Positions 8,151 to 45,851 of a stretch of DNA of 61,106 bases are shown one piece after another. Made by a program: the position numbers and the translations under genes. The notes below the pieces were generated by a model that saw only the letters and a list, made by a program, of their open reading frames with translations, was not told where the DNA came from and did not search any database. Numbering within the stretch: position 1 is the stretch's first letter; each line of letters begins with the position of its first letter. The stretch covers positions 1 to 61,106 of the forward strand of contig JAUYMJ010000028.1 of assembly GCA_030698775.1 (NCBI GenBank), in the 5' to 3' direction. The stretch is from a bacterium (lineage in GTDB: Bacteria; Patescibacteriota; Microgenomatia; Levybacterales; UBA12049).

Positions 8151-8170
8151 TTCGTCCTATTGTAACAAGC

Positions 8171-8842: not shown

Positions 8843-8977
8843 ACTCTTTTTATCGTGCTAGATTTCGCAAGGATTGTCAAGGTTTATACTTTTTTGGGTA
8901 CCGTTCTTGGATAGGCGCACGCTTCTCTTTTCTGAAATACTTTACACGGTAACGAGCTTCTGTTACCATATCAGACT

Positions 8978-14458: not shown

Positions 14459-14472
14459 AGTATCCCAGAGTC

Positions 14473-14502
14473 TTGCATTCCATCCTCATTCCTTGGTACA
14501 AT
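14473..14502 (+). promoter_or_regulatory. promoter of prs
   Basis: TTGCAT-18-TACAAT with an extended -10 TG. Confidence 0.5.
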
Positions 14503-14525
14503 TGTCATGTTCTTGTCAGATTACT

Positions 14526-15512: not shown

Positions 15513-15558
15513 AATACGAGTTTGACACAACTAGTTTCTTCTGAAATCATAGTAGCAG

Positions 15559-16326: not shown

Positions 16327-16341
16327 TCCTAGTCCTATAGT

Positions 16342-16370
16342 TTGACTTTACGTCTAAAATTTTTTATAAT
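16342..16370 (+). promoter_or_regulatory. promoter, leaderless layout
   Basis: TTGACT-17-TATAAT, then 7 nt to ATG 16378. The ORF-track TTG start is the -35 box. Confidence 0.6.
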
Positions 16371-16377
16371 TGCTTGT

Positions 16378-19800: not shown

Positions 19801-20706
19801 ATGAAGCTTTTTACGGGGTCTTCGTCCAGGCAGCTAGGGGAGGAAGTTGCTAGAATTGCGGGAATACAATTATCCCACGTCGAACACCACATGTTTCCGG
19901 ACGGGGAGCAGCGTATTCAGTTAAGAGAAGATGTCGTTGATCACGACGTCGTGATTGTTCAGTCGACCGGGATGCCGACTGACAAAAACTACATTGAGTT
20001 ATTTTTGCTTCTTGATGCTGCGACCAGAAATGGCGCCAAGTCAGTAACTGCAGTCATTCCATATCTTGGGTATTCCCGCCAGGACCATATTTTCAGGACA
20101 GGTGAAGCGAGATCGCTTGAAGTGATGATCCACGGGATTGAGATGAACGGAGCGACAAGTGTGATCGGTTTTGATTTTCATTCCATAAAAACTGCAGAGC
20201 TTTTTCCGATGCACGTGACGCAGCTCTCAGCGCTTCCGATTTTTGCATCGGAGATTAAAATGCACGGGTGGCTTGATAACGGGACGGTGCTTGTGTCACC
20301 GGATATGGGAGGGCTCCGTCGTCTAGGACTGCTTTCTGAAATGCTAGGGGGGATGGGGCAGGTCTCAGTTGAGAAAGACCGCGACTTGACGACTGGTGAG
20401 ATTGCGGAGAGCGGGATCCATGGGAAAGTAAAACGCAGGTGTCTTATCGTTGATGACATGATTTCAAGCGGAAGGACGATTGTGCAAGCGGCTACCATTC
20501 TTTTGCAGCATGGTGCTGAGGAGATTTACGTCTTTGCGACGCACGCCGTTTTCTCAGAAGACGCTCCAAAAACCTTACAAGCATCCGCAGTCAGGAAAGT
20601 TTTTGTCACGGATACAATTGCAGTACCGGAGAGTAAGCAGTTTGAAAAATTGGAAGTTTTGTCAATTGCTGATCTTCTAGTCAACGCACTTTCTTCGTCA
20701 CGCTGA
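19801..20706 (+). CDS. ribose-phosphate pyrophosphokinase paralog (divergent)
   Basis: Motifs are FPDGEQRIQL, VIPYLGYSRQD and CLIVDDMISSGRT. An extended -10 TGtTAAAAT lies 6 nt before the ATG. Confidence 0.85.
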   Translation: MKLFTGSSSRQLGEEVARIAGIQLSHVEHHMFPDGEQRIQLREDVVDHDVVIVQSTGMPTDKNYIELFLLLDAATRNGAKSVTAVIPYLGYSRQDHIFRTGEARSLEVMIHGIEMNGATSVIGFDFHSIKTAELFPMHVTQLSALPIFASEIKMHGWLDNGTVLVSPDMGGLRRLGLLSEMLGGMGQVSVEKDRDLTTGEIAESGIHGKVKRRCLIVDDMISSGRTIVQAATILLQHGAEEIYVFATHAVFSEDAPKTLQASAVRKVFVTDTIAVPESKQFEKLEVLSIADLLVNALSSSR

Positions 20707-23217: not shown

Positions 23218-23246
23218 TTGACAATCTATCCAGTGATATATATTAT
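23218..23246 (+). promoter_or_regulatory. promoter upstream of the second yerC-like gene
   Basis: TTGACA-17-TATTAT. The ORF-track TTG start 23218 is the -35 box. Confidence 0.6.
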
Positions 23247-23394
23247 AAGAAGCCGATTTCATTCTCCGCCTCAGCGAGACGAATGGTTATCAATGAGTGC
23301 AGAGAAAAGACTCGTTTCGGCGGAGTTTCAGCTGGAAATACGCGAGATAGGGGTAAGTAAATTCAGTCAAAGACTTCGTCTTTGCAGCTTCAAA

Positions 23395-23808
23395 ATGTCA
23401 CAATTATCAAAACTTCCGATACGACGGGACCTTGAAGAACAGATGTTTGACCTGTTCACCTCAACGATTGTTTCGCTTAAAGATAAAATAGAGATAGAGG
23501 ATTTTTTAAGCGACCTTCTTTCACCGATTGAGAAACTGATGCTTGCCAAACGTCTGGCGATTGCTTTGATGCTTGAGAAAGAATACACCTATCCTATGAT
23601 CGGGAAGTCGCTTCGCGTGACGCCGACAACAATTGCATCAGTGAGTATGCAGCTGCGCTACGCCGGCAAGGGTTACAAAAAAATTGTTGAAAAGATTTTG
23701 TCGGAGGGGGAATACGAGGCTTTTTGGAGCGTTGTAGAAGATGTCGTCGAGAGTACTGTTGTGACGAAAAACAAAAAATCTTCTTCAAAACAAAAACGAC
23801 ACAAATAA
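23395..23808 (+). CDS. TrpR-like YerC/YecD family DNA-binding protein (second copy)
   Basis: From ATG 23395 it aligns end-to-end with 546..1055 (LLSPIEKLMLAKRLAIALMLEKEYTYPMIGKSLRVTPTTIASVS). Confidence 0.7.
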   Translation: MSQLSKLPIRRDLEEQMFDLFTSTIVSLKDKIEIEDFLSDLLSPIEKLMLAKRLAIALMLEKEYTYPMIGKSLRVTPTTIASVSMQLRYAGKGYKKIVEKILSEGEYEAFWSVVEDVVESTVVTKNKKSSSKQKRHK

Positions 23809-32403: not shown

Positions 32404-33564
32404 ATGAATCTAAGAGACCATAAAGACACAAAAACCAGACGTAGAGCCTTGGAGAAAGAGCTCTCAGTTGATGTACCACATATTGCTGCGTATACCCCTG
32501 ATTTAGAAATTGCATCCACAAAAAATTGCGAGAATATGATTGGTGCAGTGCAGATACCGTTAGGTATCGCAGGTCCATTGAAAATTCAGAGTTCTGAGTT
32601 AAAAGTTCAGAGTTATTATTTACCTTTGGCAACGACGGAAGGTGTGTTGGTTGCGTCGATTAGTCGCGGCTGCAAGGCAATCACACAGGCCGGGGGAGCA
32701 ATCGTGCACACCCATAAAGTTGGGACGACGCGTGGCCCCGTATTTTATACCGGCTCCATCAGGGAAGGGACGAGACTGCACAACTTTGTCAAAAATCAAA
32801 AAGCAAAAATCAAAAAGATTGCAGAGGGTACGTCCAACCATTTGGAGCTGAAAGATATAAAAACAAAGAGCATACCAAACTATACATTTTTGCGTTTTTC
32901 CTACGACACGGGTGATGCCATGGGGATGAATATGGTGACGATCGCGACACAGGCAGCGGGTGAGTTTATTGAAAAAGAAACTGGGATTCCATGTCTTTCG
33001 GTTGCAGGGAATTTTGATGTTGACAAAAAACCGGCCTGGCTTAATTCGATTAACCATAGGGGGATAAAAGCCTGGGCCGAGGTTGTTCTTCAAAGAAGAA
33101 TTCTTAAAGACATACTAAAAACTACACCAGAGAAATTTTTTGATGTCTGGCTAGGGAAGGTGATGCTGGGAAGTGCTGTTTCCGGGTCAATCGGGTTTAA
33201 TGCTCATATCGCCAATGTCATTGCAGCGCTCTTCATAGCGACAGGACAGGATCCATCACACGTTGTTGAAGGATCTTTGGGAATTACTACTGCAAAGGTT
33301 TTGGATAGTGGGGATCTCTATGTTGGTGTCTTTCTCCCTTCCCTTCTTGTTGGTACAGTAGGTGGAGGGACAAGTCTCCCGACGCAAAAAGAAGCACTGT
33401 CGGTACTCGGGGTCAGTGGGGCCGGGAAGGTTGAAGAATTCGCTCAGATTGTTGTAGCAGCCTGTCTGGCAGGAGAGGTTTCACTCTTAGCGAGTTTAAG
33501 CGAGGGTTCACTTGCGAGAGCTCACGAGCGATTAGGTCGGGATACGGTCAAAAATCAAAAATGA
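32404..33564 (+). CDS. mvaA: HMG-CoA reductase, class I (archaeal/eukaryotic catalytic-domain type)
   Basis: ENMIGAVQIPLG, ATTEGVLVAS, DAMGMNMV and GTVGGGT. ATG 32404 lies within the ORF-track frame. Confidence 0.9.
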   Translation: MNLRDHKDTKTRRRALEKELSVDVPHIAAYTPDLEIASTKNCENMIGAVQIPLGIAGPLKIQSSELKVQSYYLPLATTEGVLVASISRGCKAITQAGGAIVHTHKVGTTRGPVFYTGSIREGTRLHNFVKNQKAKIKKIAEGTSNHLELKDIKTKSIPNYTFLRFSYDTGDAMGMNMVTIATQAAGEFIEKETGIPCLSVAGNFDVDKKPAWLNSINHRGIKAWAEVVLQRRILKDILKTTPEKFFDVWLGKVMLGSAVSGSIGFNAHIANVIAALFIATGQDPSHVVEGSLGITTAKVLDSGDLYVGVFLPSLLVGTVGGGTSLPTQKEALSVLGVSGAGKVEEFAQIVVAACLAGEVSLLASLSEGSLARAHERLGRDTVKNQK

Positions 33565-33648
33565 AAGATCAAAAACAAGATCAAAGATAAAAAATTTGAA
33601 ACTTTATGTTTTGGATTTGAGATTTGATCTTTGCGCTTTGAGATTATT
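33551..33648. repeat. palindromic element family A, copy 1
   Basis: aaagatcaaaaacaagatcaaa (33564-33585) and tttgatctttgcgctttgagatt (33623-33645) are identical to the arms at 41559-41580 and 41610-41632. Confidence 0.85.
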
Positions 33649-34686
33649 ATGGTAGGTATAGTCAGTTACGGTACATACATCCCGAAATATCGCATCAAGA
33701 TAGAGGATATTGCAAAGGCGTGGCAGAAAAACCCTGATGATATTGTCGACGCAATCCGTGTAAAAGAGAAAGCAGTTCCCAATACCGACGAAGATGCGAT
33801 CACTATGGGTGTTGAGGCGACGGTACGGGCTCTGCGGACAACAAACCTTGATCCGAAAAAGATCCAGAGTGTCTTCGTCGGATCAGAGAGCCACCCTTAC
33901 GCAGTCAATCCTTCAGCGACAATTATTGCCGAAGCAATCGGCATGGGCAATCACTATTTTGCCGTTGACATGAAGTTTGCATGTAAGGCTGCAACAGCTG
34001 CAATGCAGGTGACGGTCGGATTGCTGGGAAGTGGGGAAATTGAGTATGGGCTAGTTATCGGTTCAGACACTGCGCAAGCAAAACCTCATGACGTACTCGA
34101 GTATAGCGCGGCGAGTCTGGCAGCATCGTATATCTTAGGAAATCACAAAGAAGAGGTGCTTGCAGAAGTTACTGCAATGTCATCTTTTTCCTCAAACACA
34201 CCCGATTTCTGGCGTAGAGACGGCGTGAGATATCCCTCGCATTTTGGCAGGTTTACCGGACAGCCGGCATATTTTGCACATGTTTTAGGTGAGTCGGAGG
34301 CTCTCCTTGAGAAGTCCGGGTTGAGGCCTAAAGATTTTGATTACTGCTTGTTCCACATGCCAAACGGTAAGTTTCCACGTTCTGTTGCAACAAAGCTTGG
34401 GTTCACGAAAGAGCAACTTTTGCCCTCATTGACTGTTGACATGGTCGGTAACCCATATACCGCCTCCGCGTTTCTCGGGCTGGCGGCAATTTTGGATATT
34501 GCCCGTCCCGGACAGAGGATATTCTTTGTATCATACGGTTCAGGCGCCGGGGCAGACGGGTTCATTTTTGAAACGACGAAGAAACTTAAAGATTTTCAGA
34601 AAAAGACGCTTCCTGTTGCAAAACAAATTGCGGATAAAGAATATATTAGTTATTTGGAATATCTGCAGAAGACACACAAGCTTTAA
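33649..34686 (+). CDS. HMG-CoA synthase, archaeal type
   Basis: N-terminal VGIVSYGTYIPKYRIKIEDIA. Thiolase-fold motifs include GSESHPY, the MKFACKAATAA Cys and FHMPNGKF. Confidence 0.85.
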   Translation: MVGIVSYGTYIPKYRIKIEDIAKAWQKNPDDIVDAIRVKEKAVPNTDEDAITMGVEATVRALRTTNLDPKKIQSVFVGSESHPYAVNPSATIIAEAIGMGNHYFAVDMKFACKAATAAMQVTVGLLGSGEIEYGLVIGSDTAQAKPHDVLEYSAASLAASYILGNHKEEVLAEVTAMSSFSSNTPDFWRRDGVRYPSHFGRFTGQPAYFAHVLGESEALLEKSGLRPKDFDYCLFHMPNGKFPRSVATKLGFTKEQLLPSLTVDMVGNPYTASAFLGLAAILDIARPGQRIFFVSYGSGAGADGFIFETTKKLKDFQKKTLPVAKQIADKEYISYLEYLQKTHKL

Positions 34687-34795
34687 AAAGATCAAAATTC
34701 AAAATGCAAAAATCAAATTCACAAATAAAAAGTAAAAATTTTTAGCTTTACGTTAGGTTTTAATCTTTGGTTTTTAATCTTTGCGCTTACATCAT
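34686..34795. repeat. palindromic element family A, copy 2 (diverged)
   Basis: aaagatcaaaattcaaaatgcaaaaatcaaa ... ttttaatctttggtttttaatctttgcgctt. Confidence 0.65.
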
Positions 34796-34801
34796 AATAA
34801 A

Positions 34802-36022
34802 ATGAGAAACGAAAGCATATTTATCATTGGGGCAAGTACAACACGCTTTGGTGAGTTATGGAACAGTTCACCAAGGGAGCTTGCGAAAGAAGCTTTTACA
34901 AATGCGCTGTCTCAGTCCGGAGTTGGCGTTTCAAACATTGAGGCGCTGTATGTCGGAAATATGCTCGGAGGGATGCTTGGTCACCAGGAGAATATCGGTT
35001 CTTTCTATGCTGAAGAGCTGAGTCTTTCACCTGTCCCCGCATTCAGGCTTGAGGCAGCGTGTGCATCAGGTGGCGTTGCTTTGCATAACGCCATAAATAG
35101 TATAAAAGCGGGTTTGTATAAGACTGTTGCCATATTGGGGATTGAGAAAATGACCGATGCGGGAGGGGATCTTGTAGCATCGGCACTCATGGCAGCAGGA
35201 TCTGATGAAGAGCGGGGATCGGGCATTACGTTTCCCGGTCTCTACGCGCTCATGGCACAGGCATACATGCAGCAGTATAAAATCAAGGAGGAAGATTTGG
35301 CTGAAGTTTCTGTAAAAAATCACTATCACGGATCGTTTAACCACAAAGCACAATTCCGGTTTCAGGTAAGTATTGCTGATGTGATGAAGAGTAGCCGTAT
35401 TGCCGATCCGTTGAAGCTTCTTGACTGTTCACCCGTTACCGATGGTGCGGCGTGTCTGGTTATTACACGGGATGAGTCGATTATCCCGAAAAACTCGGTC
35501 TCGATAATTGCAAGCGAAGTAGGAACCGACACGCTGGCACTGCATAAAAGGTCTTCATTTACCTCGCTTCGCTCGGCGAAAGAAGCGGCAAAGCAGGCTT
35601 ATGCAAAAGCGGGAGTAAAAGCAACAGATGTAGATGTCGCTGAGGTGCATGACTGCTTTAGTATTGCAGAGCTTATTGCCCTTGAAGACTTAGAGTTTTC
35701 AGAAGTCGGAAGGGCAGCAGTGGATGTGAAGAAGGGGAAGTTTACAAGAGGAAAGGGAAAGACGATCGTGAATCCATCAGGAGGCCTTAAAGCGTGCGGC
35801 CATCCTGTCGGTGCCACCGGAATTAAACAAGCAGTTGAGATTTATGAACAACTGATGGGGACTGCAGGTGATAAGCAGTCCGTAAAGAATGCAAAGATTG
35901 GTTTGGCACATAATGTCGGCGGATCGGGAGCGATAGCGACGGTACACATATTTAAAAAATCGAAAATGCAAAGCGCAAAGATCAAAACTAAGTTCAAAGT
36001 GCAAAACCTTCAATATTTTTGA
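34802..36022 (+). CDS. acetyl-CoA acetyltransferase (thiolase), archaeal type, with a repeat-encoded tail
   Basis: IIGASTTRFGE, the EAACASG active Cys, CGHPVGATG and NVGGSG. The last 22 codons (KKSKMQSAKIKTKFKVQNLQYF) lie in repeat copy A3. Confidence 0.88.
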   Translation: MRNESIFIIGASTTRFGELWNSSPRELAKEAFTNALSQSGVGVSNIEALYVGNMLGGMLGHQENIGSFYAEELSLSPVPAFRLEAACASGGVALHNAINSIKAGLYKTVAILGIEKMTDAGGDLVASALMAAGSDEERGSGITFPGLYALMAQAYMQQYKIKEEDLAEVSVKNHYHGSFNHKAQFRFQVSIADVMKSSRIADPLKLLDCSPVTDGAACLVITRDESIIPKNSVSIIASEVGTDTLALHKRSSFTSLRSAKEAAKQAYAKAGVKATDVDVAEVHDCFSIAELIALEDLEFSEVGRAAVDVKKGKFTRGKGKTIVNPSGGLKACGHPVGATGIKQAVEIYEQLMGTAGDKQSVKNAKIGLAHNVGGSGAIATVHIFKKSKMQSAKIKTKFKVQNLQYF

Positions 36023-36072
36023 GATTTTAGATGTGGATTTGCTATTTGAGATTTGATTTTTGAATTGATTTT
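35955..36072. repeat. palindromic element family A, copy 3 (left arm inside the thiolase CDS)
   Basis: caaagcgcaaagatcaaa (35969-35986) is the exact reverse complement of tttgatctttgcgctttg in copies 1 and 4. Confidence 0.8.
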
Positions 36073-36375
36073 ATGATAACAACACCCGTCAAACTTTGGA
36101 GAAGAGGAAAAAAACTGGTCAACCATATCGGGAAGACCGGAAAGCTTTTGTACTGGACAATTGTCCGCGTGCCACCGAAAAATTTTGCCGACCAGGCGCC
36201 GTATCCTGTCGGAATTGTGCGCTTAGATGATGGGGAAATGATGGTCGGGCAGCTCGTTGACTGGACGGAGAGGGATTTGAAGAGCGGTGTGAAAGTAGTT
36301 GCCGTCATGCGACGGGTTACTCATGAAGACCCCGAAAACATCATTCCCTACGGCATCAAGTTTAAGCCGGTGTAA
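36073..36375 (+). CDS. DUF35 OB-fold protein (thiolase/HMGCS partner) lacking the zinc ribbon
   Basis: GKLLYWTIVRVPP...PYPVGIVRLDDGEMMVGQLVD is a DUF35 OB-fold pattern. The protein contains no cysteine. Confidence 0.75.
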   Translation: MITTPVKLWRRGKKLVNHIGKTGKLLYWTIVRVPPKNFADQAPYPVGIVRLDDGEMMVGQLVDWTERDLKSGVKVVAVMRRVTHEDPENIIPYGIKFKPV

Positions 36376-36383
36376 CGTCCATC

Positions 36384-37100
36384 TCAAAGATTAGTAACCG
36401 AGATATAAGGCGATCCTCTTTGGGGAGTTACCGAGTGTCCAAGATCAATCATCGTCTCCCCAAAAGCTTCAAGGCTTCCTGCCGGTGCATAGTTTTGTTT
36501 GACATATTCTGTTGGCCCTAGAATAACTCTTGTATCAAGGAGAACCTCGTTTATCTGCGGAAGCGACAGGAGGTCGACGACTGCTCCGACAACACACTTG
36601 TCAGTATATTCTCCACCGACAATAACGTTCGTACTACTCGTGATGCGAAAACGTTTCTCTAGCAGCCGTCTTTCAATTCTTCTTGATGTAACGCTCGGTA
36701 AGGCGATATTTTCTTCGACAAATATATTTTCCGGATATGCAGTCTCAGATTTGCATCTGTTTAAAAGTGAAATCCAGGACAAAGGAACTCTTCCATTCTG
36801 CGTAAAAAGATCTACCTGTCTCCATGTAGCCATGACATATTTTCCGAGATCCTCTGGTTTTGGCCCGGCATTCGGAATAAAGAGCAAGAGATCTTTTGGG
36901 GAGCTAGGCAAAAAATATTTGAGGACTTTGTTTTGAAAATCTGCGCGAACGCGGAATACCTGATTCGTCCAAAGTAAATCTTCCCCAAATTTCGCATCGT
37001 AAGCGTGAATCAGAAAGCGGAGATTATCGATGTCTATAGGCTTGAGATTCTCACCGGCTTCTGTAGGTAGTTGGCTCTTGGTTTCAAGCCGTGTCTGCAT
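36384..37100 (-). CDS. hypothetical protein, possible isochorismatase-like cysteine hydrolase fold
   Basis: IVGGEYTDKCVVGAVVD resembles the GG.xTD.CV motif. It is the only antisense gene in the mevalonate cluster. Confidence 0.5.
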   Translation of the reverse strand: MQTRLETKSQLPTEAGENLKPIDIDNLRFLIHAYDAKFGEDLLWTNQVFRVRADFQNKVLKYFLPSSPKDLLLFIPNAGPKPEDLGKYVMATWRQVDLFTQNGRVPLSWISLLNRCKSETAYPENIFVEENIALPSVTSRRIERRLLEKRFRITSSTNVIVGGEYTDKCVVGAVVDLLSLPQINEVLLDTRVILGPTEYVKQNYAPAGSLEAFGETMIDLGHSVTPQRGSPYISVTNL

Positions 37101-37137
37101 GGTGGGGATTATACCAAGATTTATGTATAATACCCAT

Positions 37138-38205
37138 ATGAAGCCGATTACCGTTTCAGCTCCCGGGAAAATTCACCTCATGGGCGAGCACGCAGTCGTA
37201 TATGGTAAACCGGCGCTCCTTGCAGCAATCGACCGCCGCTGCAAAGTCTCTTTGATGCCGCGAGGTGATAGGAATATCCAGATCATCTCAAAAGACACAG
37301 GCCTTGATGTCACACTGTCACTCGATGAGGTATTGGAAAAGACCTACCATGCCCAGAAGCAATGGGAGGACTTTTTGGAAAAAAAAGACGCACAGATTCT
37401 CAAAGCGATTACCAAAGATCCTGCTGATTACCTCTCGATTGCAGTCGGTGAAACGCTTATTTATTTCGGCATGCCTCCGGAGAGTGGCTTTACGATTACC
37501 GTCTCATCTGACATCCCGATGGGTGCGGGGCTTGGTTCATCTGCAGCACTTGCGGCTGCGGTAGCTTCTGCTATTATGACGTTTCTTGGCAAGAAGCTTG
37601 ATATGTGGACAATCCATGAAATTGCTCTCCTTATTGAGCAGAAAAGACATGGTAATCCGTCTGGTGGTGATACGGCAATCGTTTCAAGTGGAAACCTTAT
37701 CTGGTTTCGGAAGGAATCCGAGGTACTAAAAGTGGTCCAGCGGGTGCCGTTTGGGATTTTGGATCCGATTGCCTCGCGGTTTTTCCTTGTCGATACGGGT
37801 ATTCCTGAGGAATCAACCGGTGAGATGGTGCAAGCGGTCAGGGATCTCTATGACGAGAAAATTGAGTTTGTGGCAAATGTGTTTAATGACTTGGAGAAAG
37901 TGACTCGGGATATGGTAATTGTTTTGAAAAATAATCACGAAGGAGATCTCATCGAGATAATTAGACAGGGAGAGAAACATCTCGAGCAGCTCGAGGTAGT
38001 CTCAGATGAGGTAAAAGAGGTTATCAGAAGTATCGAAGGCTCAGGAGGCGCTGCAAAAATTTCTGGGGGAGGAGGGAAGCTAAAAGGCACAGGACATCTC
38101 CTCGTCTACCACAAAGATAAAAAGACACTTGAGGATGTTTTGGCAAAGTTCAATCTTATGCCGGTTGCCATCCGTCTTGGCGCTTCGGGTCTAACCGTGC
38201 ACTAG
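37138..38205 (+). CDS. mvk: mevalonate kinase (GHMP family)
   Basis: SAPGKIHLMGEHAVVYG, PMGAGLGSSAALAAA and KISGGGGK. TATAAT lies 6 nt before ATG 37138. Confidence 0.85.
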   Translation: MKPITVSAPGKIHLMGEHAVVYGKPALLAAIDRRCKVSLMPRGDRNIQIISKDTGLDVTLSLDEVLEKTYHAQKQWEDFLEKKDAQILKAITKDPADYLSIAVGETLIYFGMPPESGFTITVSSDIPMGAGLGSSAALAAAVASAIMTFLGKKLDMWTIHEIALLIEQKRHGNPSGGDTAIVSSGNLIWFRKESEVLKVVQRVPFGILDPIASRFFLVDTGIPEESTGEMVQAVRDLYDEKIEFVANVFNDLEKVTRDMVIVLKNNHEGDLIEIIRQGEKHLEQLEVVSDEVKEVIRSIEGSGGAAKISGGGGKLKGTGHLLVYHKDKKTLEDVLAKFNLMPVAIRLGASGLTVH

Positions 38206-38261
38206 TTTATTCTTCGAGCTTTTGATTTTTCCCGGGTAAACCCGAATAGATTAGTTTAACA

Positions 38262-39266
38262 ATGAAGCAATTTAACAATGCAGCAATGAATCCCATCACT
38301 GTTTCAGCTCCCGGAAAACTCATGCTCTTTGGTGAACATGCAGTTGTCTATGGGCATCCCTGCATTGTCACGGCTGTGGGGCAGAGGATGTTTTTGACAG
38401 TGCAAACGCTAAACTCCAAACTCTTAACTCTAAACTCTCCAGAAGTAAATGTGACCAATTATTCAAAACTCTTGGACCAGCTAGGGGAAGGAGAGATGCC
38501 AAAAGGTGCACGGTTTATAGAAATTGCAGTCAAAAATTTTTCTGAAAAGTATACGGTCAAGTCAGGATTGCAGATTACAACGCGGTCAGAATTCGCATCA
38601 ACGTTTGGATTCGGTTCTTCAAGTGCATCTACAGTATGTACGATAAAAGCGCTGTCTGAATTATTTGATTTAAAATTATCAAACAAAGAAATCTTTGACC
38701 TCTCTTACAAAACTGTTTTGGATGTGCAGGGCAAGGGCTCGGGGTTTGATGTCGCGGCAGCAATTTATGGCGGGTCGCTCCTTTTTTTTACTGGAGGAAA
38801 AGAAATTACACCATTAACCATAAACCATTTACCAGTAATCATCGGTTATAGCGGCATAAAAGCAGATACGGTCAGGCTTATTGAAAAAGTCGCCGAGAAA
38901 GCAGAAAAAGAGCCTGAAGTCGTTGAAGATATTTATAAGAGGATAGAGCAAATCGTTGAGAAGGCAAAGACCGCGATTGAGAAAAGTGATTTTGAAGAGG
39001 CGGGGAAACTTATGACGGAAAACCAACTGCTTTTAAGTCAATTGGACGTCAGCAGTGAAAAGCTTGATGCTATGATACAAGCAGCAAGAGATGCCGGAGC
39101 ATATGGTGCGAAATTGTCAGGAGCGGGAGGGGGGGACTGTATGATTGCCCTTCGTAATGCTCAGGGAAAACCCGCAGTTGAAAAAGCTATTGAGAGGGTT
39201 GGCGGGCAAGTGATTGATGTTGAGACAAATGTGGAAGGAGTGAGAGTTGAGAATAAACAAATGTAA
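38262..39266 (+). CDS. second mevalonate-kinase-like GHMP kinase (phosphomevalonate kinase candidate)
   Basis: SAPGKLMLFGEHAVVYG, FGFGSSSAST and KLSGAGGGDCMIAL. An alternative ATG lies at 38286. Confidence 0.75.
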   Translation: MKQFNNAAMNPITVSAPGKLMLFGEHAVVYGHPCIVTAVGQRMFLTVQTLNSKLLTLNSPEVNVTNYSKLLDQLGEGEMPKGARFIEIAVKNFSEKYTVKSGLQITTRSEFASTFGFGSSSASTVCTIKALSELFDLKLSNKEIFDLSYKTVLDVQGKGSGFDVAAAIYGGSLLFFTGGKEITPLTINHLPVIIGYSGIKADTVRLIEKVAEKAEKEPEVVEDIYKRIEQIVEKAKTAIEKSDFEEAGKLMTENQLLLSQLDVSSEKLDAMIQAARDAGAYGAKLSGAGGGDCMIALRNAQGKPAVEKAIERVGGQVIDVETNVEGVRVENKQM

Positions 39267-39269
39267 ATT

Positions 39270-40250
39270 ATGAAAGCAACAGCGAAAGCACCATCAAATA
39301 TCGCATTTATCAAATATTGGGGACGGAAGGATGAAGCATTGAAACTTCCGAGTAACGGAAGTGTCTCTATGAATTTGTCAGGACTCACGACGACTACGAC
39401 AGTTGAATTTTCTCCAGACTATAAAGAAGATGAGATAATAATTAACGGCATACTGGAGCCAGAAGAAAAAACAGCAAAAATTTTCAGTCACTTGGACAGA
39501 ATCCGAAAGTTTGCAAAGATTGATGAAAAAGCAAAAATAGTTTCAGAAAATAGTTTTCCCCGGGGAACAGGTTTGTCATCATCCGCCTCAGGATTTGCTG
39601 CGTTAACATTGGCCGCATCAAAAGCTGCTGGTTTGGATTTGTCCGAAAAAGAGTTGTCAATTTTGGCAAGACAAGGATCCGGATCTGCCTGCCGTTCTAT
39701 TCCTGACGGATTTGTTGAGTGGTTGGATGGCGATACATCAGAAGACTCGTATGCTGTTTCACTCTATCCTCCTGAGCATTGGGATCTCGTCGATATCGCC
39801 GTGATCTTGACAGAACAAGTCAAGGATGTCAGCACGACAGAAGGACAGAAATTAGCAGCGACGAGTCCTTTCTTTGAAGCGAGACAAAGTAAAATCAAAG
39901 ATAAAATAGTAAAGATCAAAGACTATCTCAAAAATAAAAACTTTGAGAAATTTGGGGAATTAGTGGAGTCTGAGGCCTTGGAGCTTCATGCAATAATGCT
40001 CACTTCACAGCCATCCCTTATCTACATAAATCCAGCAACGGTTGCTGTTATGAAAGCAGTCAAGAAGTGGAGGAGTGAAGGTTTACAAGTCTATTTCACC
40101 CTAAACACAGGACAGAATATTCATTTGATTTGTGAGAAAATCTCAGCAGCAGCGGTTGTCAGTAAAGTGAAAGAATCTGAATTCGCACAAGCGATTATTG
40201 AAAATGCACCGTCGAGAGGGGCAGGCATAGCTGACCACCATCTCTTCTGA
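39270..40250 (+). CDS. mvaD: diphosphomevalonate decarboxylase family (MDD/PMD)
   Basis: APSNIAFIKYWGRKD, GTGLSSSASGFAAL and QGSGSACRS. Confidence 0.88.
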   Translation: MKATAKAPSNIAFIKYWGRKDEALKLPSNGSVSMNLSGLTTTTTVEFSPDYKEDEIIINGILEPEEKTAKIFSHLDRIRKFAKIDEKAKIVSENSFPRGTGLSSSASGFAALTLAASKAAGLDLSEKELSILARQGSGSACRSIPDGFVEWLDGDTSEDSYAVSLYPPEHWDLVDIAVILTEQVKDVSTTEGQKLAATSPFFEARQSKIKDKIVKIKDYLKNKNFEKFGELVESEALELHAIMLTSQPSLIYINPATVAVMKAVKKWRSEGLQVYFTLNTGQNIHLICEKISAAAVVSKVKESEFAQAIIENAPSRGAGIADHHLF

Positions 40251-40302
40251 GCTTATAAATCTTATAGTATTTTTCACCAAAACATGGTAAAATAGTACAT
40301 CT

Positions 40303-40998
40303 ATGGGTATTGGTCCTGAAAATTTTACGCCAATTAATAAAGACTTTGTTTTACCTCTTGCGTTTCCGCAGGGAGAAGTACCTTCTTCTGCATCACCAGA
40401 CAATATTAACCCGGTAACATTTTCTTTTGTGCAGACAGCATTTGTCAGGGGGGTTCATGAGCGTCTTCCTCTCCCGGCAGTGAAGGCAGAAGGTCAAGGC
40501 CCTGACACTAAAGAAAATATTTCCGTTTGGGCTGACCAAAGAAGAGTATGGGTAGCGACGCACCAGGTTTTAGAAGGTGGGTCGTTGGCGAGTATCGAAA
40601 AAGCAGGACAGGTTTCCCGACAGAGAATAAGTATTCTTGTAAAAGAAGGGCTTGCGATTCTTTGGGAACTATCTGATGATCCGGTCAAACAAAAGTACCC
40701 ACTTGAGATAGTGAAAGAGTTTTTTGTGAGACCACAAAAAAGGATGCTTCCTGAGAAAACACCTGAAGAAATCGCTGAAAGAAAAAAACAAACATCTGAT
40801 CGCCTGAGCGCTGCACTTACGGGAAGAACATTGTCAAGATCTCATAGGGAGAATCTTAGCGCTGCGAAACTCGGTAAAAAAAGAGAACCATACTCAGAGG
40901 AGTGGCGTCGAAATATAAGTATTGGGAGAAGAAGAATTCCGTCACGAAAAGATTCTCAGAAGACAGAAGAAACTGATGCGTACACTGCAATAACATGA
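40303..40998 (+). CDS. orphan DNA-binding protein: HTH plus two NUMOD3-like repeats, no nuclease domain recognised
   Basis: SLASIEKAGQVSRQRISILVKEGL (HTH-like). GRTLSRSHRENLSAAKLGKK and EPYSEEWRRNISIGRRR are NUMOD3-like. It has its own extended -10 TGgTAAAAT (40285-40293). Confidence 0.6.
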   Translation: MGIGPENFTPINKDFVLPLAFPQGEVPSSASPDNINPVTFSFVQTAFVRGVHERLPLPAVKAEGQGPDTKENISVWADQRRVWVATHQVLEGGSLASIEKAGQVSRQRISILVKEGLAILWELSDDPVKQKYPLEIVKEFFVRPQKRMLPEKTPEEIAERKKQTSDRLSAALTGRTLSRSHRENLSAAKLGKKREPYSEEWRRNISIGRRRIPSRKDSQKTEETDAYTAIT

Positions 40999-41585
40999 GA
41001 CGAGGAATTCTTTCAATGAAAAAAAACACCACTCGCCAAATGCTTATTATTGTCGATGATAATGACGTCCCGACCGGGCAGTATGAAGACAAAGGCGAGT
41101 GTCATTTCGGAGATGGGATCCATCACCGCGCATTTGTTGTTTTATTGGAAAACTTCAAAGGTGAAGTGCTCCTGCAGCTTCGTAAACACGTCAGATGGGA
41201 CAAGTATTGGGATCTGACTGCAATAAGCCATGTTTTACACTTTCGGCCAGACCATAACGAAAGTTATCAGGAAGCAGCTCTTCGATCACTAAAAGAAGAG
41301 ATGGGGATTACAAATGTTACAATTAAAAAAATTGGGGGGTTTAATTATTTTGCAAAATACCATTCTCACTGTGAGAATGAATACTGTGCAGTACTGATTG
41401 GTATATATAACGGTAAGATTGCTCCAAATACTGATGTGATTTACGAATACAAATGGATGCCGAAAAACGCTTTCATCAACGATGTTGAACAGTTTCCTGA
41501 GAAATATACACCGTGGGCTGTTGAGGGAGTGAAAATATTAGATCAAAATTCAGAAATCAAAGATCAAAAACAAGATCAAAAATAA
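40995..41585 (+). CDS. idi: type 1 isopentenyl-diphosphate isomerase-like Nudix protein
   Basis: HRAF, WDKYWD, ENEYCAVL and EYKWMP parallel E. coli Idi. The start overlaps the upstream stop (ATGA), and an alternative ATG lies at 41016. Confidence 0.75.
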   Translation: MRRGILSMKKNTTRQMLIIVDDNDVPTGQYEDKGECHFGDGIHHRAFVVLLENFKGEVLLQLRKHVRWDKYWDLTAISHVLHFRPDHNESYQEAALRSLKEEMGITNVTIKKIGGFNYFAKYHSHCENEYCAVLIGIYNGKIAPNTDVIYEYKWMPKNAFINDVEQFPEKYTPWAVEGVKILDQNSEIKDQKQDQK

Positions 41586-41640
41586 AAGTTTTTACGCTTT
41601 ACGCTAGACTTTGATCTTTGCGCTTTGAGATTTGAGCTGT
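41541..41640. repeat. palindromic element family A, copy 4 (left arm encodes the idi C-terminus)
   Basis: The 41559-41580 and 41610-41632 arms are identical to copy 1. Confidence 0.85.
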
Positions 41641-41650
41641 GAGATACGTG

Positions 41651-41701
41651 ATCCTGAAACAAGCCGCCAGAGGCGAGCCTCGCCTTCGGCGGGTTCAGGA
41701 T
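41651..41701 (+). repeat. GC-rich long hairpin upstream of uppS
   Basis: atcctgaaacaagccgccagaggcgagcctcgccttcggcgggttcaggat. Confidence 0.7.
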
Positions 41702-41712
41702 GACAATTAACC

Positions 41713-42399
41713 ATGGAAAACAAAATTCCAAATCACATTGCTTTCATCATGGATGGCAACCGTAGGTGGGCGAGTGCCCACAAATTGGAGATGCTGTTTG
41801 GTCATGACAAGGGAGCCCATCAGATAGAGCCTTTGGTTGCATATGCCTCAAAGCAGGGAATTTCTTATGTCACATTCTGGGCGTTCTCAACAGAGAATTG
41901 GCAGCGCACTGAAAAAGAAGTCGCTGTCCTTATGGAAGTCTTTAGGAGGATGTTTCGTGATCCTATGGTAGACAGAATGAAGAAAAATGACGTGAAGTTT
42001 AACGTCATCGGTGATACCAGTAAGTTTCCTCAGGACATCCAAGACGATCTTCGAAAATTGCTTGAAGAAACAAAAAATAATAAAAAAATTACCGTGACGA
42101 TCGCGCTCAACTACGGTGGTCGGGATGAGATACTTCGCGCTGTGCGTGATGCAGTCAGTGCGCAGCAAACAGTAATCAGTGAAGATGCTTTTGGGCAGTT
42201 GTTATTCACAAAGGATCTTCCTGATCCCGATTTTCTGATTCGAACTGGTGGGGAGATGCGTCTTAGTGGGTTCCAGCCGTGGCAGACAGTATATACAGAA
42301 CTCTATTTCACCGATGTGTTGTGGCCGGATTTTGACGAAAAGGAGTTTCAAAAAGCACTTGATGAGTTTGATTTGCGGGAGAGGCGTTTTGGAAGATAG
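41713..42399 (+). CDS. uppS: undecaprenyl diphosphate synthase
   Basis: HIAFIMDGNRRWA, FSTENWQR and the RTGGEMRLSGF pattern. Confidence 0.93.
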   Translation: MENKIPNHIAFIMDGNRRWASAHKLEMLFGHDKGAHQIEPLVAYASKQGISYVTFWAFSTENWQRTEKEVAVLMEVFRRMFRDPMVDRMKKNDVKFNVIGDTSKFPQDIQDDLRKLLEETKNNKKITVTIALNYGGRDEILRAVRDAVSAQQTVISEDAFGQLLFTKDLPDPDFLIRTGGEMRLSGFQPWQTVYTELYFTDVLWPDFDEKEFQKALDEFDLRERRFGR

Positions 42400-42754: not shown

Positions 42755-44647
42755 ATGAAACATACTGTTTTTTACATCATTGATTTTGACAGCACGTTTG
42801 TCACTGTTGAGGCGCTAGACGAACTGGCAAAAATCTCACTTGTTGGCAATCCGAAACAGGACAAGATAGTAAGTGATATTGCAACAATAACCAGAGAAGG
42901 GATGGAGGGGAAGATTCCGTTCGCTGTATCTTTAAAAAAACGCGTCCGGTTATTAGGCGCAAATAAGCAGCATATTGCAACGCTTTCCAAAAAACTTGCA
43001 GCGTCAATTACGCCATCTGTTCAACGGAACAAAGATTTTTTTAAGAGTTTTTCTGAAAGAACATACATCATTTCAGGCGGTTTTTCTGAATATATCGTTC
43101 CTATCGTTTCACCGTTTGGGATACATAAGTCACATGTATTGGCAAATCGTTTTCTCTATGACAAAAAAGGAAATATCACGGGATATGATAGGAAAAACCC
43201 GCTTTCAAAAAACGAAGGCAAAGTCAGAGCCGTTGAGAGCCTCGGACTGAAAGGAGAAGTGATCGTTCTTGGTGACGGTATTACCGACTATCAGATAAAA
43301 GAACGGGGGAAAGCAGATACGTTTTTTGCTTTTACGGAAAACGTGAGACGGTCCGGAGTCGTTGTGAAAGCGGATGGTGTTGTTTCAGATTTTGACGAGT
43401 TTTTGTATTTGCAGCATCTCCCTCGAAAACAATCATACCCAAAATCGCGGATGAAAGTCCTGCTGCTTGAGAAAATAGACCAAAGGGCTGTTGACAAGTT
43501 CCAGAATGACGGTTTTGTTGTTGAAACCGTTTCATCATCACTTGATGAGAGTGCGCTTAAAAAAGCGATTGCCGACGTATCGGTTCTTGGAATCCGTTCA
43601 AAGACAGAACTGTCCAAACTGGTTTTGGAGAATGCAAAAAAACTTCTTGCTGTTGGGGCATACTGCATAGGGACAAACCAGATTGACCTCCAAACATGCT
43701 CGGAGAGAGGAATCGCTGTGTTTAATGCGCCGTACAGTAATACACGAAGTGTTGTTGAGCTGGCACTTGGAAATATTATCATGCTTTATCGAAAGGCAGT
43801 TGATAAAAGTGTGAATCTTCATAAGGGAATTTGGGATAAGTCGGCAAGCGGATGTTTTGAAGTCAGAGGAAAAAAACTTGGCATCATAGGTTATGGAAAT
43901 ATCGGGACGCAACTCGGGATCCTTGCCGAAGATTTAGGTATGGATGTGTATTTTTATGACATTGTTGACAAACTTGCACTAGGAAATGCAAAACGTTGCG
44001 CATCGCTTGGCGAGTTACTTCAGATGAGTGATGTTATCACGGTGCATGTTGATGGGAGAAAGAGCAATAAAAACCTGATTACGAAATACGAATTTGAAAA
44101 AATGAAAAAAGGAGTAATTTTTTTGAACCTCTCCAGAGGATTTATCGTTGACATTATTGCACTAGCCGACGCAGTCAAGAGGGGAATTGTTGCAGGATGT
44201 GCAGTTGACGTATTCCCTGAAGAACCGAAGAGTAACACGGAACTGTTTGTCAGTGTCCTCCAAGGTCTTCCCAATACAATTCTCACACCACATATTGGTG
44301 GAAGCACCGAGGAGGCACAAAAAAATATTGGAGAGTTTGTCACAGGGAAGCTCGTTGATTTTATCAATAACGGTACGACGACGTTATCCGTCAATTTTCC
44401 AACAATCCAACTACCACCCCAAGGAAAGTCACATCGTTTGATCCATCTCCATAAAAACACACCTGGTCTTCTTGCTTCGATCAATACTATTCTGGCAAAG
44501 CATATGATCAACGTTGAAGCACAATTTTTGAAAACCAACGATGCGATCGGGTACGTTATCACAGACGTAAATAGGGATTATGGACAGGATGTGTTAGAAG
44601 AGTTGCGGAATATCAAAGGGACAATTCGGTTGAGGGTTCTATACTAA
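42755..44647 (+). CDS. serA: fusion protein: HAD phosphoserine phosphatase (SerB-like) plus D-3-phosphoglycerate dehydrogenase with an ACT domain (SerA)
   Basis: N-terminal DFDSTF (DxDxT) and GDGITD. Then come KVLLLEKID, the GIIGYGNIGTQLG NAD site, TPHIGGST and a C-terminal ACT-like segment. Confidence 0.85.
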   Translation: MKHTVFYIIDFDSTFVTVEALDELAKISLVGNPKQDKIVSDIATITREGMEGKIPFAVSLKKRVRLLGANKQHIATLSKKLAASITPSVQRNKDFFKSFSERTYIISGGFSEYIVPIVSPFGIHKSHVLANRFLYDKKGNITGYDRKNPLSKNEGKVRAVESLGLKGEVIVLGDGITDYQIKERGKADTFFAFTENVRRSGVVVKADGVVSDFDEFLYLQHLPRKQSYPKSRMKVLLLEKIDQRAVDKFQNDGFVVETVSSSLDESALKKAIADVSVLGIRSKTELSKLVLENAKKLLAVGAYCIGTNQIDLQTCSERGIAVFNAPYSNTRSVVELALGNIIMLYRKAVDKSVNLHKGIWDKSASGCFEVRGKKLGIIGYGNIGTQLGILAEDLGMDVYFYDIVDKLALGNAKRCASLGELLQMSDVITVHVDGRKSNKNLITKYEFEKMKKGVIFLNLSRGFIVDIIALADAVKRGIVAGCAVDVFPEEPKSNTELFVSVLQGLPNTILTPHIGGSTEEAQKNIGEFVTGKLVDFINNGTTTLSVNFPTIQLPPQGKSHRLIHLHKNTPGLLASINTILAKHMINVEAQFLKTNDAIGYVITDVNRDYGQDVLEELRNIKGTIRLRVLY

Positions 44648-44783
44648 ATTTACCTAATTGCTCTAATTAACCTAATTTCTAAAGAATTACAAAATAAATA
44701 TATTAGGAATTGGGATTTTCCTCCAGAGGCGGATCAGCCTTTGGCTGAGATTAGGTCAATTAGAAATTGGAATAATTAGAAAT
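44648..44783. repeat. palindromic intergenic element, family B copy 2, with a central GC hairpin
   Basis: tacctaattgctctaattaacctaatttctaaag ... tcagcctttggctga ... ggtcaattagaaattggaataattagaaatt. Confidence 0.7.
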
Positions 44784-44789
44784 TTGTTT

Positions 44790-45851
44790 ATGATTTACTT
44801 TACACCCGGACCATCACAACTTTACCCGACAGTCAAGAAACATATGACAAGCGCTTTGCGTAATGAGGTCCCGTCGCTTTCTCACAGAAGCGCAAAATAT
44901 CAAGAGATCGTTTCGTCAACTGTTGTTGGTCTTCGTACATTACTTACAATTCCAAAAACACATAGCATCTTCTTCGTTGCTTCGGGGACAGAGGCGATGG
45001 AGAGGATTGTTGAGAATTGTGTTACGAAGAACAGTTTTCATTTCATCAATGGGGCATTCTCAAAACGTTTTTTTCAAACGTCCATTGAGTTAAAAAAGAA
45101 TGCAAAAAAACATGAGGTTGCGATGGGGCAGGGGTTTGATTTTGAAGAACAAATAATACCAAAGCAAACAGAGCTTGTTTGTTTCACCCAAAATGAAACG
45201 AGTACTGGTGTTTCGTTGCCGATGGACAAACTCTACGAATTAAAAAAACAAAATGCAAAGATGCTTTTTGTACTTGACATCGTCTCGTCTGCACCGTATG
45301 TGCACGTTGATTTCCGCTCTATTGACGTTGCATTTTTTTCCGTACAAAAAGGATTCGGTCTTCCCGCAGGACTTGGTGTAATGATTGTGGGACCAGATGC
45401 GATTGAGAAAGCGGAGTTTCTCGCGAAAAAGGGAACAAACATAGGTTCCTACCACAACTTTCTCTCACTCAAAACATTTGCCGACAAATACCAAACTCCG
45501 GAAACCCCAAATGTGCTGGGCCAATATCTTCTTGGAAAAGTCATCGGGGATATGCTGAAAAAAGGCATGACAAATATCAGAAAGGAGACTGAGGAAAAGG
45601 CGGCACTTCTTTATAGGTTTTTTGACAGACACAATAGATACATACCGTTTGTAAAAGAGAAAATGTTTCGTTCAAAGACAGTAATCACTGTTGTCATTCC
45701 GGATGGGTCAAAATCTGTTGTTCAGAAGTTAAAAGAGAGAGGGTTTGTTGTCGATAGGGGATACGGTGAGTTAAAAGAGACCCAGATCCGCATTGCGAAT
45801 TTCCCTGCTACCTCAAAAGCCGCTGTAAACAAACTCATCGCACGCATGTGA
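44790..45851 (+). CDS. serC: phosphoserine aminotransferase
   Basis: IYFTPGPSQL, class V aminotransferase fold, and the FSVQKGFG PLP-Lys region. Confidence 0.85.
   Translation: MIYFTPGPSQLYPTVKKHMTSALRNEVPSLSHRSAKYQEIVSSTVVGLRTLLTIPKTHSIFFVASGTEAMERIVENCVTKNSFHFINGAFSKRFFQTSIELKKNAKKHEVAMGQGFDFEEQIIPKQTELVCFTQNETSTGVSLPMDKLYELKKQNAKMLFVLDIVSSAPYVHVDFRSIDVAFFSVQKGFGLPAGLGVMIVGPDAIEKAEFLAKKGTNIGSYHNFLSLKTFADKYQTPETPNVLGQYLLGKVIGDMLKKGMTNIRKETEEKAALLYRFFDRHNRYIPFVKEKMFRSKTVITVVIPDGSKSVVQKLKERGFVVDRGYGELKETQIRIANFPATSKAAVNKLIARM

Follow-up and report, generated by a model that had tools for sequence, protein, structure and literature searches.

A mevalonate gene cluster of probable Candidate Phyla Radiation type, with a DUF35 protein devoid of the zinc ribbon, on a Patescibacteria contig

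Nine genes on the forward strand of contig JAUYMJ010000028.1, between positions 32404 and 42399, encode relatives of the mevalonate pathway enzymes together with an undecaprenyl-diphosphate synthase (UppS). The window considered here is the whole contig, that is, a complete contig of 61,106 bp from a metagenome-assembled genome (MAG), with locus tags Q8Q49_. On the basis of sequence comparisons, the locus is very probably a mevalonate gene cluster typical of the Candidate Phyla Radiation (CPR)/Patescibacteria and inherited within this lineage, its host probably being a Levyibacteriota-like member of the Microgenomatia. The arrangement is already known, and as the locus shows the same one it represents a further example of a described kind (Hoshino & Gaucher 2018, PMC6107057), with nothing new in its gene content. 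Possible novelties may be found in four of the products: a zinc-less DUF35 protein of about 100 amino acids, a decarboxylase resembling phosphomevalonate decarboxylase (PMD), two kinases scoring below the phosphomevalonate kinase (PMK) cutoff and an IDI-like protein without the catalytic cysteine.

Genes were called from a map of open reading frames (ORFs) and from profile searches (Pfam and NCBIfam), with bit scores judged against the cutoff of each model. The nine genes are the following (HMG-CoA, 3-hydroxy-3-methylglutaryl-CoA):

32404-33564, + strand: class-I HMG-CoA reductase (HMGR); PF00368, 389 bits; ATG at 32404, the ORF opening at TTG 32362
33649-34686, + strand: archaeal-type HMG-CoA synthase (HMGCS); NF003274, 482 bits, and TIGR00748, 428 bits
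34802-36022, + strand: archaeal/SCP2-type acetoacetyl-CoA thiolase; NF004720, 467 bits
36073-36375, + strand: short DUF35 OB-fold protein; PF01796, 52 bits
37138-38205, + strand: GHMP1, a divergent kinase of the mevalonate kinase family; TIGR00549, 175 bits
38262-39266 (alternative start 38286), + strand: GHMP2, a kinase of the mevalonate kinase family; TIGR00549, 226 bits
39270-40250, + strand: MDD-family decarboxylase; TIGR01240, 280 bits
40995-41585, + strand: IDI-like Nudix protein (CPR 'IDI-I' type); NF002995, 86 bits, and TIGR02150, 67 bits
41713-42399, + strand: UppS, a cis-prenyltransferase; PF01255, 265 bits over residues 12-227 of 228

The original prediction, made from the DNA letters alone, had described nine same-strand genes in pathway order. 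Genes, coordinates and strand were all recovered, and the family models match the two GHMP kinases, the MDD-family decarboxylase and uppS where they had been placed; the order does not hold, as the first three genes, HMGR-HMGCS-thiolase, correspond to pathway steps 3-2-1 and the order of the two kinases is undecidable from sequence. The predicted class of the reductase is the one favoured by the scores. Specifically, HMGR reaches 415 bits with the NADPH-dependent class-I model TIGR00533, slightly under the cutoff of 441.8, and just 66 bits with the class-II model TIGR00532 (cutoff 260); in other words, it is clearly class-I-like in sequence, yet below the equivalog cutoff.

Relatives of the cluster were sought by an HMGCS scan of one genome per GTDB species, by tblastn of the window proteins against 80 loci and by ORF maps of the closest ones, which comprise a 'Candidatus Parcubacteria' MAG locus (L002), a Levyibacteriota MAG locus (L003) and other Patescibacteria loci (L005, L006, L008 and L032). 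The closest HMGCS sequences are those of L002 (87% identity) and L003 (82%), and next come other Patescibacteria (about 52-54%) and the Archaeoglobi (49-53%). The cluster from HMGR through UppS is conserved in all six of these further Patescibacteria loci, at 50-89% identity; HMGR orthologues occupy the same position in each of them, and UppS has orthologues within or next to the cluster in L002, L005, L006, L008 and L032. In neighbour-joining trees the seven CPR HMGCS sequences form one clade, and so do the five CPR thiolases that were long enough to be included, in both cases apart from the archaeal, Anaerolineae and FCB-group clades. This picture is in line with published work, in which the same gene set (archaeal-type AACT, HMGS, HMGR-I, MVK and PMVK together with DPMD and IDI-I) was described in CPR Microgenomates, with the genes clustered and typically syntenic with cis-IPPS, with CPR-specific enzyme clades, and with the cluster inferred in the CPR ancestor (Hoshino & Gaucher, Mol Biol Evol 2018, PMC6107057).

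The proposal that the cluster had been acquired and then remodelled locally is contradicted by these data, namely by the six syntenic Patescibacteria loci, the separate CPR clades, the CPR-ancestor inference (PMC6107057) and the lineage-wide occurrence of the repeats described below; in particular, CPR HMGCS and thiolase form clades of their own, separate from archaea. A recent horizontal transfer of the whole cluster from an archaeon, with repeats, an orphan gene and an antisense gene inserted afterwards, is very unlikely for the same reasons and can be considered largely refuted. Such a transfer would fit the archaeal type of the upper-module proteins, the fact that the nearest non-CPR HMGCS sequences are those of Archaeoglobi (49-53% identity) and the lineage-specific or unique nature of both interrupting ORFs. 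However, the entire cluster is kept across divergent Patescibacteria, the CPR clade is not nested inside archaea in the neighbour-joining trees, and other CPR HMGCS sequences (54%) are as near as the archaeal ones. Moreover, GC content and GC skew of the cluster match those of the flanks with no break at the borders, a zinc-less DUF35 is found in at least 120 Patescibacteria-type homologues but in no archaeal one of those sampled, repeats of a comparable kind are present in relatives and in other parts of the window, and presence in the CPR ancestor has been inferred (Hoshino & Gaucher 2018, PMC6107057). The antisense ORF, the homologue-less ORF and the palindromic spacers are lineage-specific additions to an inherited cluster and not marks of recent acquisition.

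The upper module and its short DUF35 protein

The assignment of the synthase to the archaeal type, as originally predicted, is supported by two archaeal models exceeding their cutoffs (NF003274, 482 bits against 244; TIGR00748, 428 bits against 353), whereas the bacterial MvaS model TIGR01835 gives 119 bits against a cutoff of 360. Similarly, the best structural match is 6ESQ_I with 374 bits, while MvaS structures score 91 bits or less. The catalytic tetrad E80/C112/H236/N268 is present and invariant across 81 aligned homologues. As for the thiolase, it scores 467 bits with NF004720 (cutoff 420) and 309 bits with 6ESQ_A, compared with 92 bits for the thiolase II model TIGR01930 (cutoff 241), and the CxS/HDxF/GHx motifs are intact in the form of C87-A-S, H283-D-C-F and G-H334-P.

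The genes for HMGCS, thiolase and DUF35 adjoin in that order, and the best match in the PDB for each of the three products is the Methanothermococcus complex 6ESQ/6ET9 (374, 309 and 48 bits, respectively). Since the flanks of the cluster carry bacterial housekeeping genes, these matches corroborate the predicted occurrence of an archaeal-type thiolase/HMGCS/DUF35 trio in a bacterial genome. The accompanying statement that bacterial mevalonate users normally carry MvaE/MvaS and no DUF35 is true of Firmicutes and fails as a general rule: the HMGCS-thiolase-DUF35 order is found in archaea and also in Anaerolineae, WOR-3, Gemmatimonadota, Zixibacteria and Stahlbacteria MAGs, and a study of 2026 put at 1,030 the number of bacterial loci in which genes for HMGS, ACAT and DUF35 are co-localised (PMC12960953).

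According to the same study, complexes that form HMG-CoA can be told from the repurposed acyltransferases PhlABC and MucABC by two features, namely the E-C-H-N tetrad of HMGS and the CxS, HDxF and GHx motifs of the thiolase (PMC12960953). As both the HMGCS tetrad and the thiolase motifs are intact, a function of the upper module in the mevalonate pathway is well supported at the level of sequence. It is extremely unlikely, on the other hand, that the trio does not form HMG-CoA and serves instead as a thiolase-only complex or as an acyltransferase repurposed in the manner of PhlABC/MucABC. Bacterial HMGS/ACAT/DUF35 loci have often been repurposed in this way (PMC12960953), and PhlA is the second-best structural relative of HMGCS (184-186 bits); nevertheless, repurposed complexes have lost the tetrad and the HDxF motif, both of which are retained here, HMGCS exceeds two equivalog cutoffs, and the trio sits among HMGR, the kinases, the decarboxylase and UppS. 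By analogy with the archaeal system, the three proteins may also form a physical thiolase/HMGCS/DUF35 complex, which is inferred only.

The third member of the trio departs from its relatives. The ORF at 36073-36375 passes the DUF35 model as anticipated (PF01796, 52 bits against a cutoff of 27), with the match confined to the OB domain; the protein contains no cysteine and has no zinc ribbon. Specifically, in the alignment with 6ESQ_E (48 bits) residues 12-100 correspond to the OB fold of the chain (41-128) and the N-terminal W-R helix (residues 6-23) to chain residues 3-20, with the rubredoxin-like ribbon region (21-40) skipped. A clean deletion of the ribbon, about 28 residues with four cysteines, is common to the seven Patescibacteria loci and the 120 best homologues from the database. 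All seven Patescibacteria copies are 98-101 amino acids long and lack CxxC, in contrast to the copies of archaea, Anaerolineae, WOR-3 and Gemmatimonadota, which are 120-136 amino acids long and almost all carry two CxxC motifs. Among 276 homologues obtained by database search, the best 120 measure 75-117 amino acids (nearly all 96-117), match PF01796 only and, where named, belong to Patescibacteria or Gottesmanbacteria; none of them deviates at K7, W9 or R10 in the N-terminal helix. An AlphaFold (AF2) model built from the homologue alignment (pLDDT 83) consists of one helix followed by a five-stranded barrel, and its best Foldseek match is again 6ESQ_E (TM 0.70). All solved DUF35 proteins bind zinc, as reported in a paper on a DUF35 structure, and a literature search found no paper mentioning DUF35 together with CPR. 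The zinc-less protein has the appearance of a scaffold-subunit variant that extends through the lineage and has gone unreported.

The lower module and the output of the pathway

Taken together, the gene products would suggest the following route. The thiolase would condense two molecules of acetyl-CoA, and HMGCS would pull this unfavourable condensation forward by making HMG-CoA, the two enzymes probably being held in a complex by the short DUF35 protein as in Methanothermococcus. HMGR would then yield mevalonate, which the two kinases and the decarboxylase would convert to isopentenyl diphosphate (IPP), or to isopentenyl phosphate if the decarboxylase acts on the monophosphate. The Nudix protein might isomerise IPP to dimethylallyl diphosphate (DMAPP), a trans-prenyltransferase encoded elsewhere would make farnesyl diphosphate (FPP), and UppS would elongate FPP to undecaprenyl diphosphate, the lipid carrier used in the synthesis of cell wall and glycans. 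The original suggestion that the adjacent uppS points to the cell-wall lipid carrier as output is plausible, and it had already been noted for CPR (Hoshino & Gaucher 2018, PMC6107057).

Both kinases start with the motif PITVSAPGK..GEHAVVYG, similar to that of mevalonate kinase (MVK), and both exceed the cutoff of the MVK model TIGR00549 (163), GHMP1 with 175 and GHMP2 with 226 bits. With the PMK models they score 61 and 119 bits (TIGR01220, cutoff 165.7) and 41 and 96 bits (NF040957, cutoff 500), respectively. The best PDB matches of GHMP1 are MVKs (77 bits), and its orthologues in other CPR clades are only 31-38% identical, some having GEW in place of GEH. GHMP2 is closest to archaeal MVKs (NF003036, 246 bits; PDB 8TEB, 140 bits, and 6MDE, 134 bits). 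Assigning MVK and PMK from motifs and PDB scores was attempted and dropped, the evidence being conflicting; judging from sequence GHMP1 could serve the pathway as MVK or as PMK, and by elimination one of the two kinases presumably acts as PMK.

The decarboxylase is of similarly mixed character. It exceeds the cutoff of the model for diphosphomevalonate decarboxylase (DMD), TIGR01240, with 280 bits against 171, and reaches 205 bits with the PMD model NF040704 (cutoff 475). Its best PDB match is 6N0X/6N0Z (313 bits, 46% identity), described in a later paper as Anaerolinea thermophila phosphomevalonate decarboxylase bound to mevalonate 5-phosphate, as against 194-219 bits and 39% identity for classical DMD structures. 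At the discriminating positions given by Dellas et al. (eLife 2013, Table 4), where the DMD signature is Tyr18/Lys21/Ile27/Ser139/Ser141/Ser192, the enzyme has Y, R, K, S, S and T, a mixture of residues typical of DMD and of mevalonate phosphate decarboxylase (MPD). The expectation for a PMD is Leu or Asn at 21, Arg at 27 and Thr at 192 (Dellas et al. eLife 2013); Lys27 and Thr192 fit it and Arg21 does not. In addition, where MPD has Arg83, for which a clash with the second phosphate was predicted (Dellas et al. eLife 2013), CPR decarboxylases have a basic residue; they also have Thr or Ser at the position of DMD Arg193 and share two indels with the Anaerolinea PMD. Whether the substrate is mevalonate 5-diphosphate or 5-phosphate is not callable from sequence.

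These features bring up the possibility, rather unlikely as it stands, that the lower half is not the classical MVK-PMK-DMD series. In this alternative the decarboxylase would act on mevalonate 5-phosphate, as in Chloroflexi and haloarchaea, and either an isopentenyl phosphate kinase (IPK) encoded elsewhere or one of the MVK-like kinases would complete IPP, making the CPR pathway a hybrid or transitional one. It is favoured by the Anaerolinea PMD being the best solved relative, by the shared indels, by the absence of DMD Arg193 and the basic residue at the Arg83 position in the CPR enzymes, by the L005 decarboxylase having, like MPD, Ala at the Ser139 position, and by both kinases missing the PMK cutoff; furthermore, IPK occurs in many Microgenomates, often syntenic with mevalonate genes (Hoshino & Gaucher 2018, PMC6107057), and CPR are now often placed in the literature as sister to Chloroflexota. 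Conversely, the residue corresponding to DMD Lys21 is Lys or Arg in all five CPR enzymes compared and Leu or Asn in PMDs, and the second kinase, for which a pure PMD route would have no use, is conserved in the cluster. TIGR01240 exceeds its cutoff while NF040704 stays far from its own (205 against 475), neither the window nor the related clusters examined yielded an IPK, and published trees put the CPR enzymes with DPMD and PMVK (Hoshino & Gaucher 2018, PMC6107057).

The original designation of the next gene product as an IDI-like Nudix protein is correct as far as Nudix and IDI-like are concerned, and it does not extend to type-1 IPP isomerase, for which the criteria are catalytic Cys67 and Glu116 and the metal ligands H25, H32, H69, E114 and E116. 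The protein scores 45 bits with E. coli IDI and keeps H25, H32, E114 and E116. The CPR proteins compared are the following:

40995-41585 of the window, + strand
18161-18685 of L002
16055-16585 of L005, - strand
18069-18608 of L006, - strand
16631-17158 of L008, - strand

In these proteins the WTNSVCGHP segment of type-1 IPP isomerase becomes WDLTAISHVLH, and a conserved cysteine immediately precedes the ENE motif. The Nudix box RSLKEEMGI is more hydrolase-like than that of E. coli IDI. Other Patescibacteria clusters carry a second Nudix paralogue preceding the decarboxylase (L005, 14572-15069), which in L008 is fused to it in a 500-amino-acid protein (14985-16487). In L005, moreover, a gene for a polyprenyl synthetase of the trans-IPPS type (7916-8806, - strand) adjoins uppS, divergent from HMGR. 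No gene of the methylerythritol phosphate (MEP) pathway is present within the 61-kb window.

A number of observations weigh against the interpretation of the locus as a mevalonate cluster of the CPR type. Neither kinase reaches the PMK cutoff, and the decarboxylase resembles phosphomevalonate decarboxylase more than the classical enzymes. The IDI-like protein falls under both cutoffs (NF002995, 86 against 127; TIGR02150, 67 against 106), and all five CPR orthologues have Ile, Ser or Ala in place of catalytic Cys67, along with a five-residue insert nearby. The DUF35 sequence is missing the zinc ribbon found in every solved DUF35, so that complex formation is not assured. Finally, neither a trans-prenyltransferase nor an IPK is encoded within the window, and the literature search found no biochemically tested mevalonate pathway enzyme from CPR.

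A broader and tentative reading of these same departures, for which the odds are rather against, is that the CPR mevalonate pathway is a biochemically distinct and possibly transitional variant and not the 'bacterial/eukaryotic' pathway as which it has been labelled. The pointers would be a zinc-less DUF35 made of W-R helix and OB fold, a decarboxylase between PMD and DMD, a 'PMK' that would be a barely diverged MVK duplicate, and a candidate isomerase without the canonical cysteine. If true, such a variant would document the PMD-to-DMD and MVK-to-PMK steps by which the classical pathway has been proposed to arise. The matter is of general relevance, as the origin of the mevalonate pathway and the 'lipid divide' between archaea and bacteria have been argued partly from CPR gene sets that are biochemically unassayed. 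Four kinds of CPR protein (DUF35, the kinases as PMK, the decarboxylase and the IDI-like protein) depart from the defining features of their families; should the departures prove true, the premise of a 'eukaryote-type pathway in CPR' in evolutionary reconstructions would need to change. Likewise, a minimal 100-amino-acid scaffold for the thiolase/HMGCS channeling complex would, if true, be useful in pathway engineering. The biochemistry of the CPR pathway thus becomes a testable question, through the zinc-less DUF35 and the non-canonical proteins of the lower pathway.

Interrupting ORFs, inverted repeats and flanking genes

The cluster is interrupted, as the original prediction had it, by an antisense gene, an orphan ORF and four palindromic elements; the 'DNA-binding' nature of the orphan ORF found no statistical support, and its 'own promoter' fares no better, a scan giving 16 promoter-like sites against 17.6 expected from shuffled sequences. 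The features are the following:

33548-33644, no strand: palindromic inverted heptamer array, copy 1; TCAAAAA units followed by TTTGAGA units, overlapping the last HMGR codons
34689-34787, no strand: palindromic inverted heptamer array, copy 2; RNA fold z -0.6
35961-36066, no strand: palindromic inverted heptamer array, copy 3, in opposite orientation; RNA fold z -1.4
36384-37100, - strand: antisense ORF of 238 amino acids, Q8Q49_02235, without Pfam match
40303-40998, + strand: ORF of 231 amino acids, Q8Q49_02255, without homologues, its stop overlapping the start of the IDI-like gene
41540-41652, no strand: palindromic inverted heptamer array, copy 4, overlapping the 3' end of the IDI-like gene; z -1.6

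A terminator scan gave 15 sites against 10.6 in shuffled sequences, that is, no difference, and scans of the window for Rfam families and tRNAs had no matches. Promoter and terminator counts thus close to those of shuffled sequences give support neither to an own promoter nor to particular operon boundaries.

Only L002 and L003, the closest genomes, have an orthologue of the antisense ORF in this slot, with 37-39% identity as compared with 63-89% for the neighbouring genes. An HMMER search of 1.8 billion representatives gave 35 distant representatives of the family, in which H32 and C169 are invariant and a GGE..CV motif is present. No significant match was obtained with Pfam at E=10 or PHROGs, a word search of 5.8 billion proteins returned only the protein itself, Pfam run on all 30 members of the family gave nothing, and nothing was found in the PDB with a three-sequence profile. 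A 30-sequence profile gave a marginal nicotinamidase/isochorismatase-like match at the cysteine motif (E 0.15), and a single-sequence AlphaFold model was unusable (pLDDT 32). One distant member (L082, 2892-3638) lies between split transketolase genes and rplK/rplA; in view of this unrelated context, the family is not tied to mevalonate genes. The 231-amino-acid ORF has no Pfam or PHROG match and found only itself among 5.8 billion proteins, and L002 holds a different, unrelated ORF of 147 amino acids in its slot. A reading by eye as a NUMOD3-like or helix-turn-helix protein was dropped, its sole support being a non-significant match to a homing-endonuclease PHROG (E 0.44). Both slots appear to be sites of lineage-specific gene turnover.

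The four palindromic elements are AT-rich and related to one another, their core CTTTGCGCTT and its complement occurring nowhere else in the window. Each is made up of two arrays of degenerate 7-nt units, inverted relative to each other; the arms of copy 4 are 29 nt long and 76% complementary, and copy 3 encodes the lysine-rich C-terminal tail of the thiolase. RNA folding of the four elements is weak (z from -0.6 to -1.6; copy 1, -18.4 kcal/mol and z -1.4), so that energy alone gives no support to a role as stable hairpins. Inverted arrays of degenerate tandem units of 7-9 nt are present in many spacers of the window, and analogous palindromes with different units lie at orthologous spacers of L002 and L003:

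2769-2803, 11060-11200, 12454-12502, 27696-27802 and 44647-44780: further inverted arrays of the window
9955-10000, 12222-12300 and 18685-18775 of L002: inverted arrays
6139-6281 of L003: inverted array

The unit differs by locus or group of loci (AATTTGA, TTCTACA, AATTAACCT/AATTAGA and TCAAAAA/TTTGAGA), and no match to such arrays was found in the literature. Given that comparable arrays occur throughout the window and in relatives, the repeats belong to the window as a whole and to the lineage and are not a scar of cluster acquisition. A GC-rich hairpin, GCCGCCAGAGGCGAGCCTCGCCTTCGGCGGG, lies at 41655-41710 between copy 4 and uppS, and similar GC-rich hairpins are found inside the inverted arrays at 11140-11170 and 44720-44750.

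The housekeeping genes of the flanks encode DnaX, RecR, a sigma-70 factor, aminoacyl-tRNA synthetases, PRPP synthetases and SerA/SerC. Downstream of the cluster, 42755-44647 encodes a fusion of 630 amino acids with an N-terminal HAD phosphatase, a D-3-phosphoglycerate dehydrogenase and an ACT domain (SerB-SerA-like), and after it comes a class-V aminotransferase (SerC-like, 44784-45851). Two PRPP synthetase paralogues (14430-15512 and 19801-20706) are located within 25 kb together with two ORFs of the Trp repressor family (546-1055 and 23218-23808). The stretch at 7000-10100 has a GC content of 0.49-0.50 as against about 0.44, with strong GC skew, and contains two ORFs without Pfam match (8171-8842, - strand, and 8978-10114, + strand).

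Comparison with known systems

The locus can be set beside four known systems. With the Firmicute operons (mvaS, mvaE/mvaA, mvaK1, mvaD, mvaK2 and fni) it shares the chemistry from acetyl-CoA to IPP and an operonic arrangement of kinases and a decarboxylase, all of the GHMP family. It differs from them in that HMGCS is not MvaS, the thiolase is of the SCP2/archaeal type and not a thiolase II, HMGR is class I and not class II, DUF35 is present and the candidate isomerase is a Nudix protein and not the type-2 enzyme. With the Methanothermococcus complex (6ESQ) it has in common the gene order HMGCS-thiolase-DUF35, the catalytic tetrad, the HDxF motif and the W-R helix and OB fold of DUF35, whereas DUF35 measures here about 100 amino acids in place of about 130, the rubredoxin-like zinc ribbon being deleted.

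As regards the PMD route of Chloroflexi and haloarchaea (Dellas et al. eLife 2013; PDB 6N0X), the decarboxylase of the cluster is closest to that of Anaerolinea, with which it shares indels, the Thr that stands in place of Arg193 and a basic residue where Arg83 would be, and Anaerolineae also possess the archaeal-type HMGCS/thiolase/DUF35 trio. The CPR system departs from this route in having Lys or Arg at the DMD Lys21 position and a second MVK-like kinase, with no IPK seen in the cluster; moreover, the DUF35 of Anaerolineae retains the zinc ribbon, unlike that of CPR.

The closest counterpart is the CPR cluster of Hoshino & Gaucher (2018, PMC6107057), a paper in which DUF35 is unmentioned. 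The antisense ORF and the homologue-less ORF inside the cluster set the present clade apart from it, as does the absence of IPK and trans-IPPS from the cluster, L005 having trans-IPPS beside uppS, and the labels PMVK, DPMD and IDI-I are not borne out here by model cutoffs or key residues. For the rest, the two agree in gene set, in clustering, in synteny with cis-IPPS and in the CPR-specific clades to which the enzymes belong.

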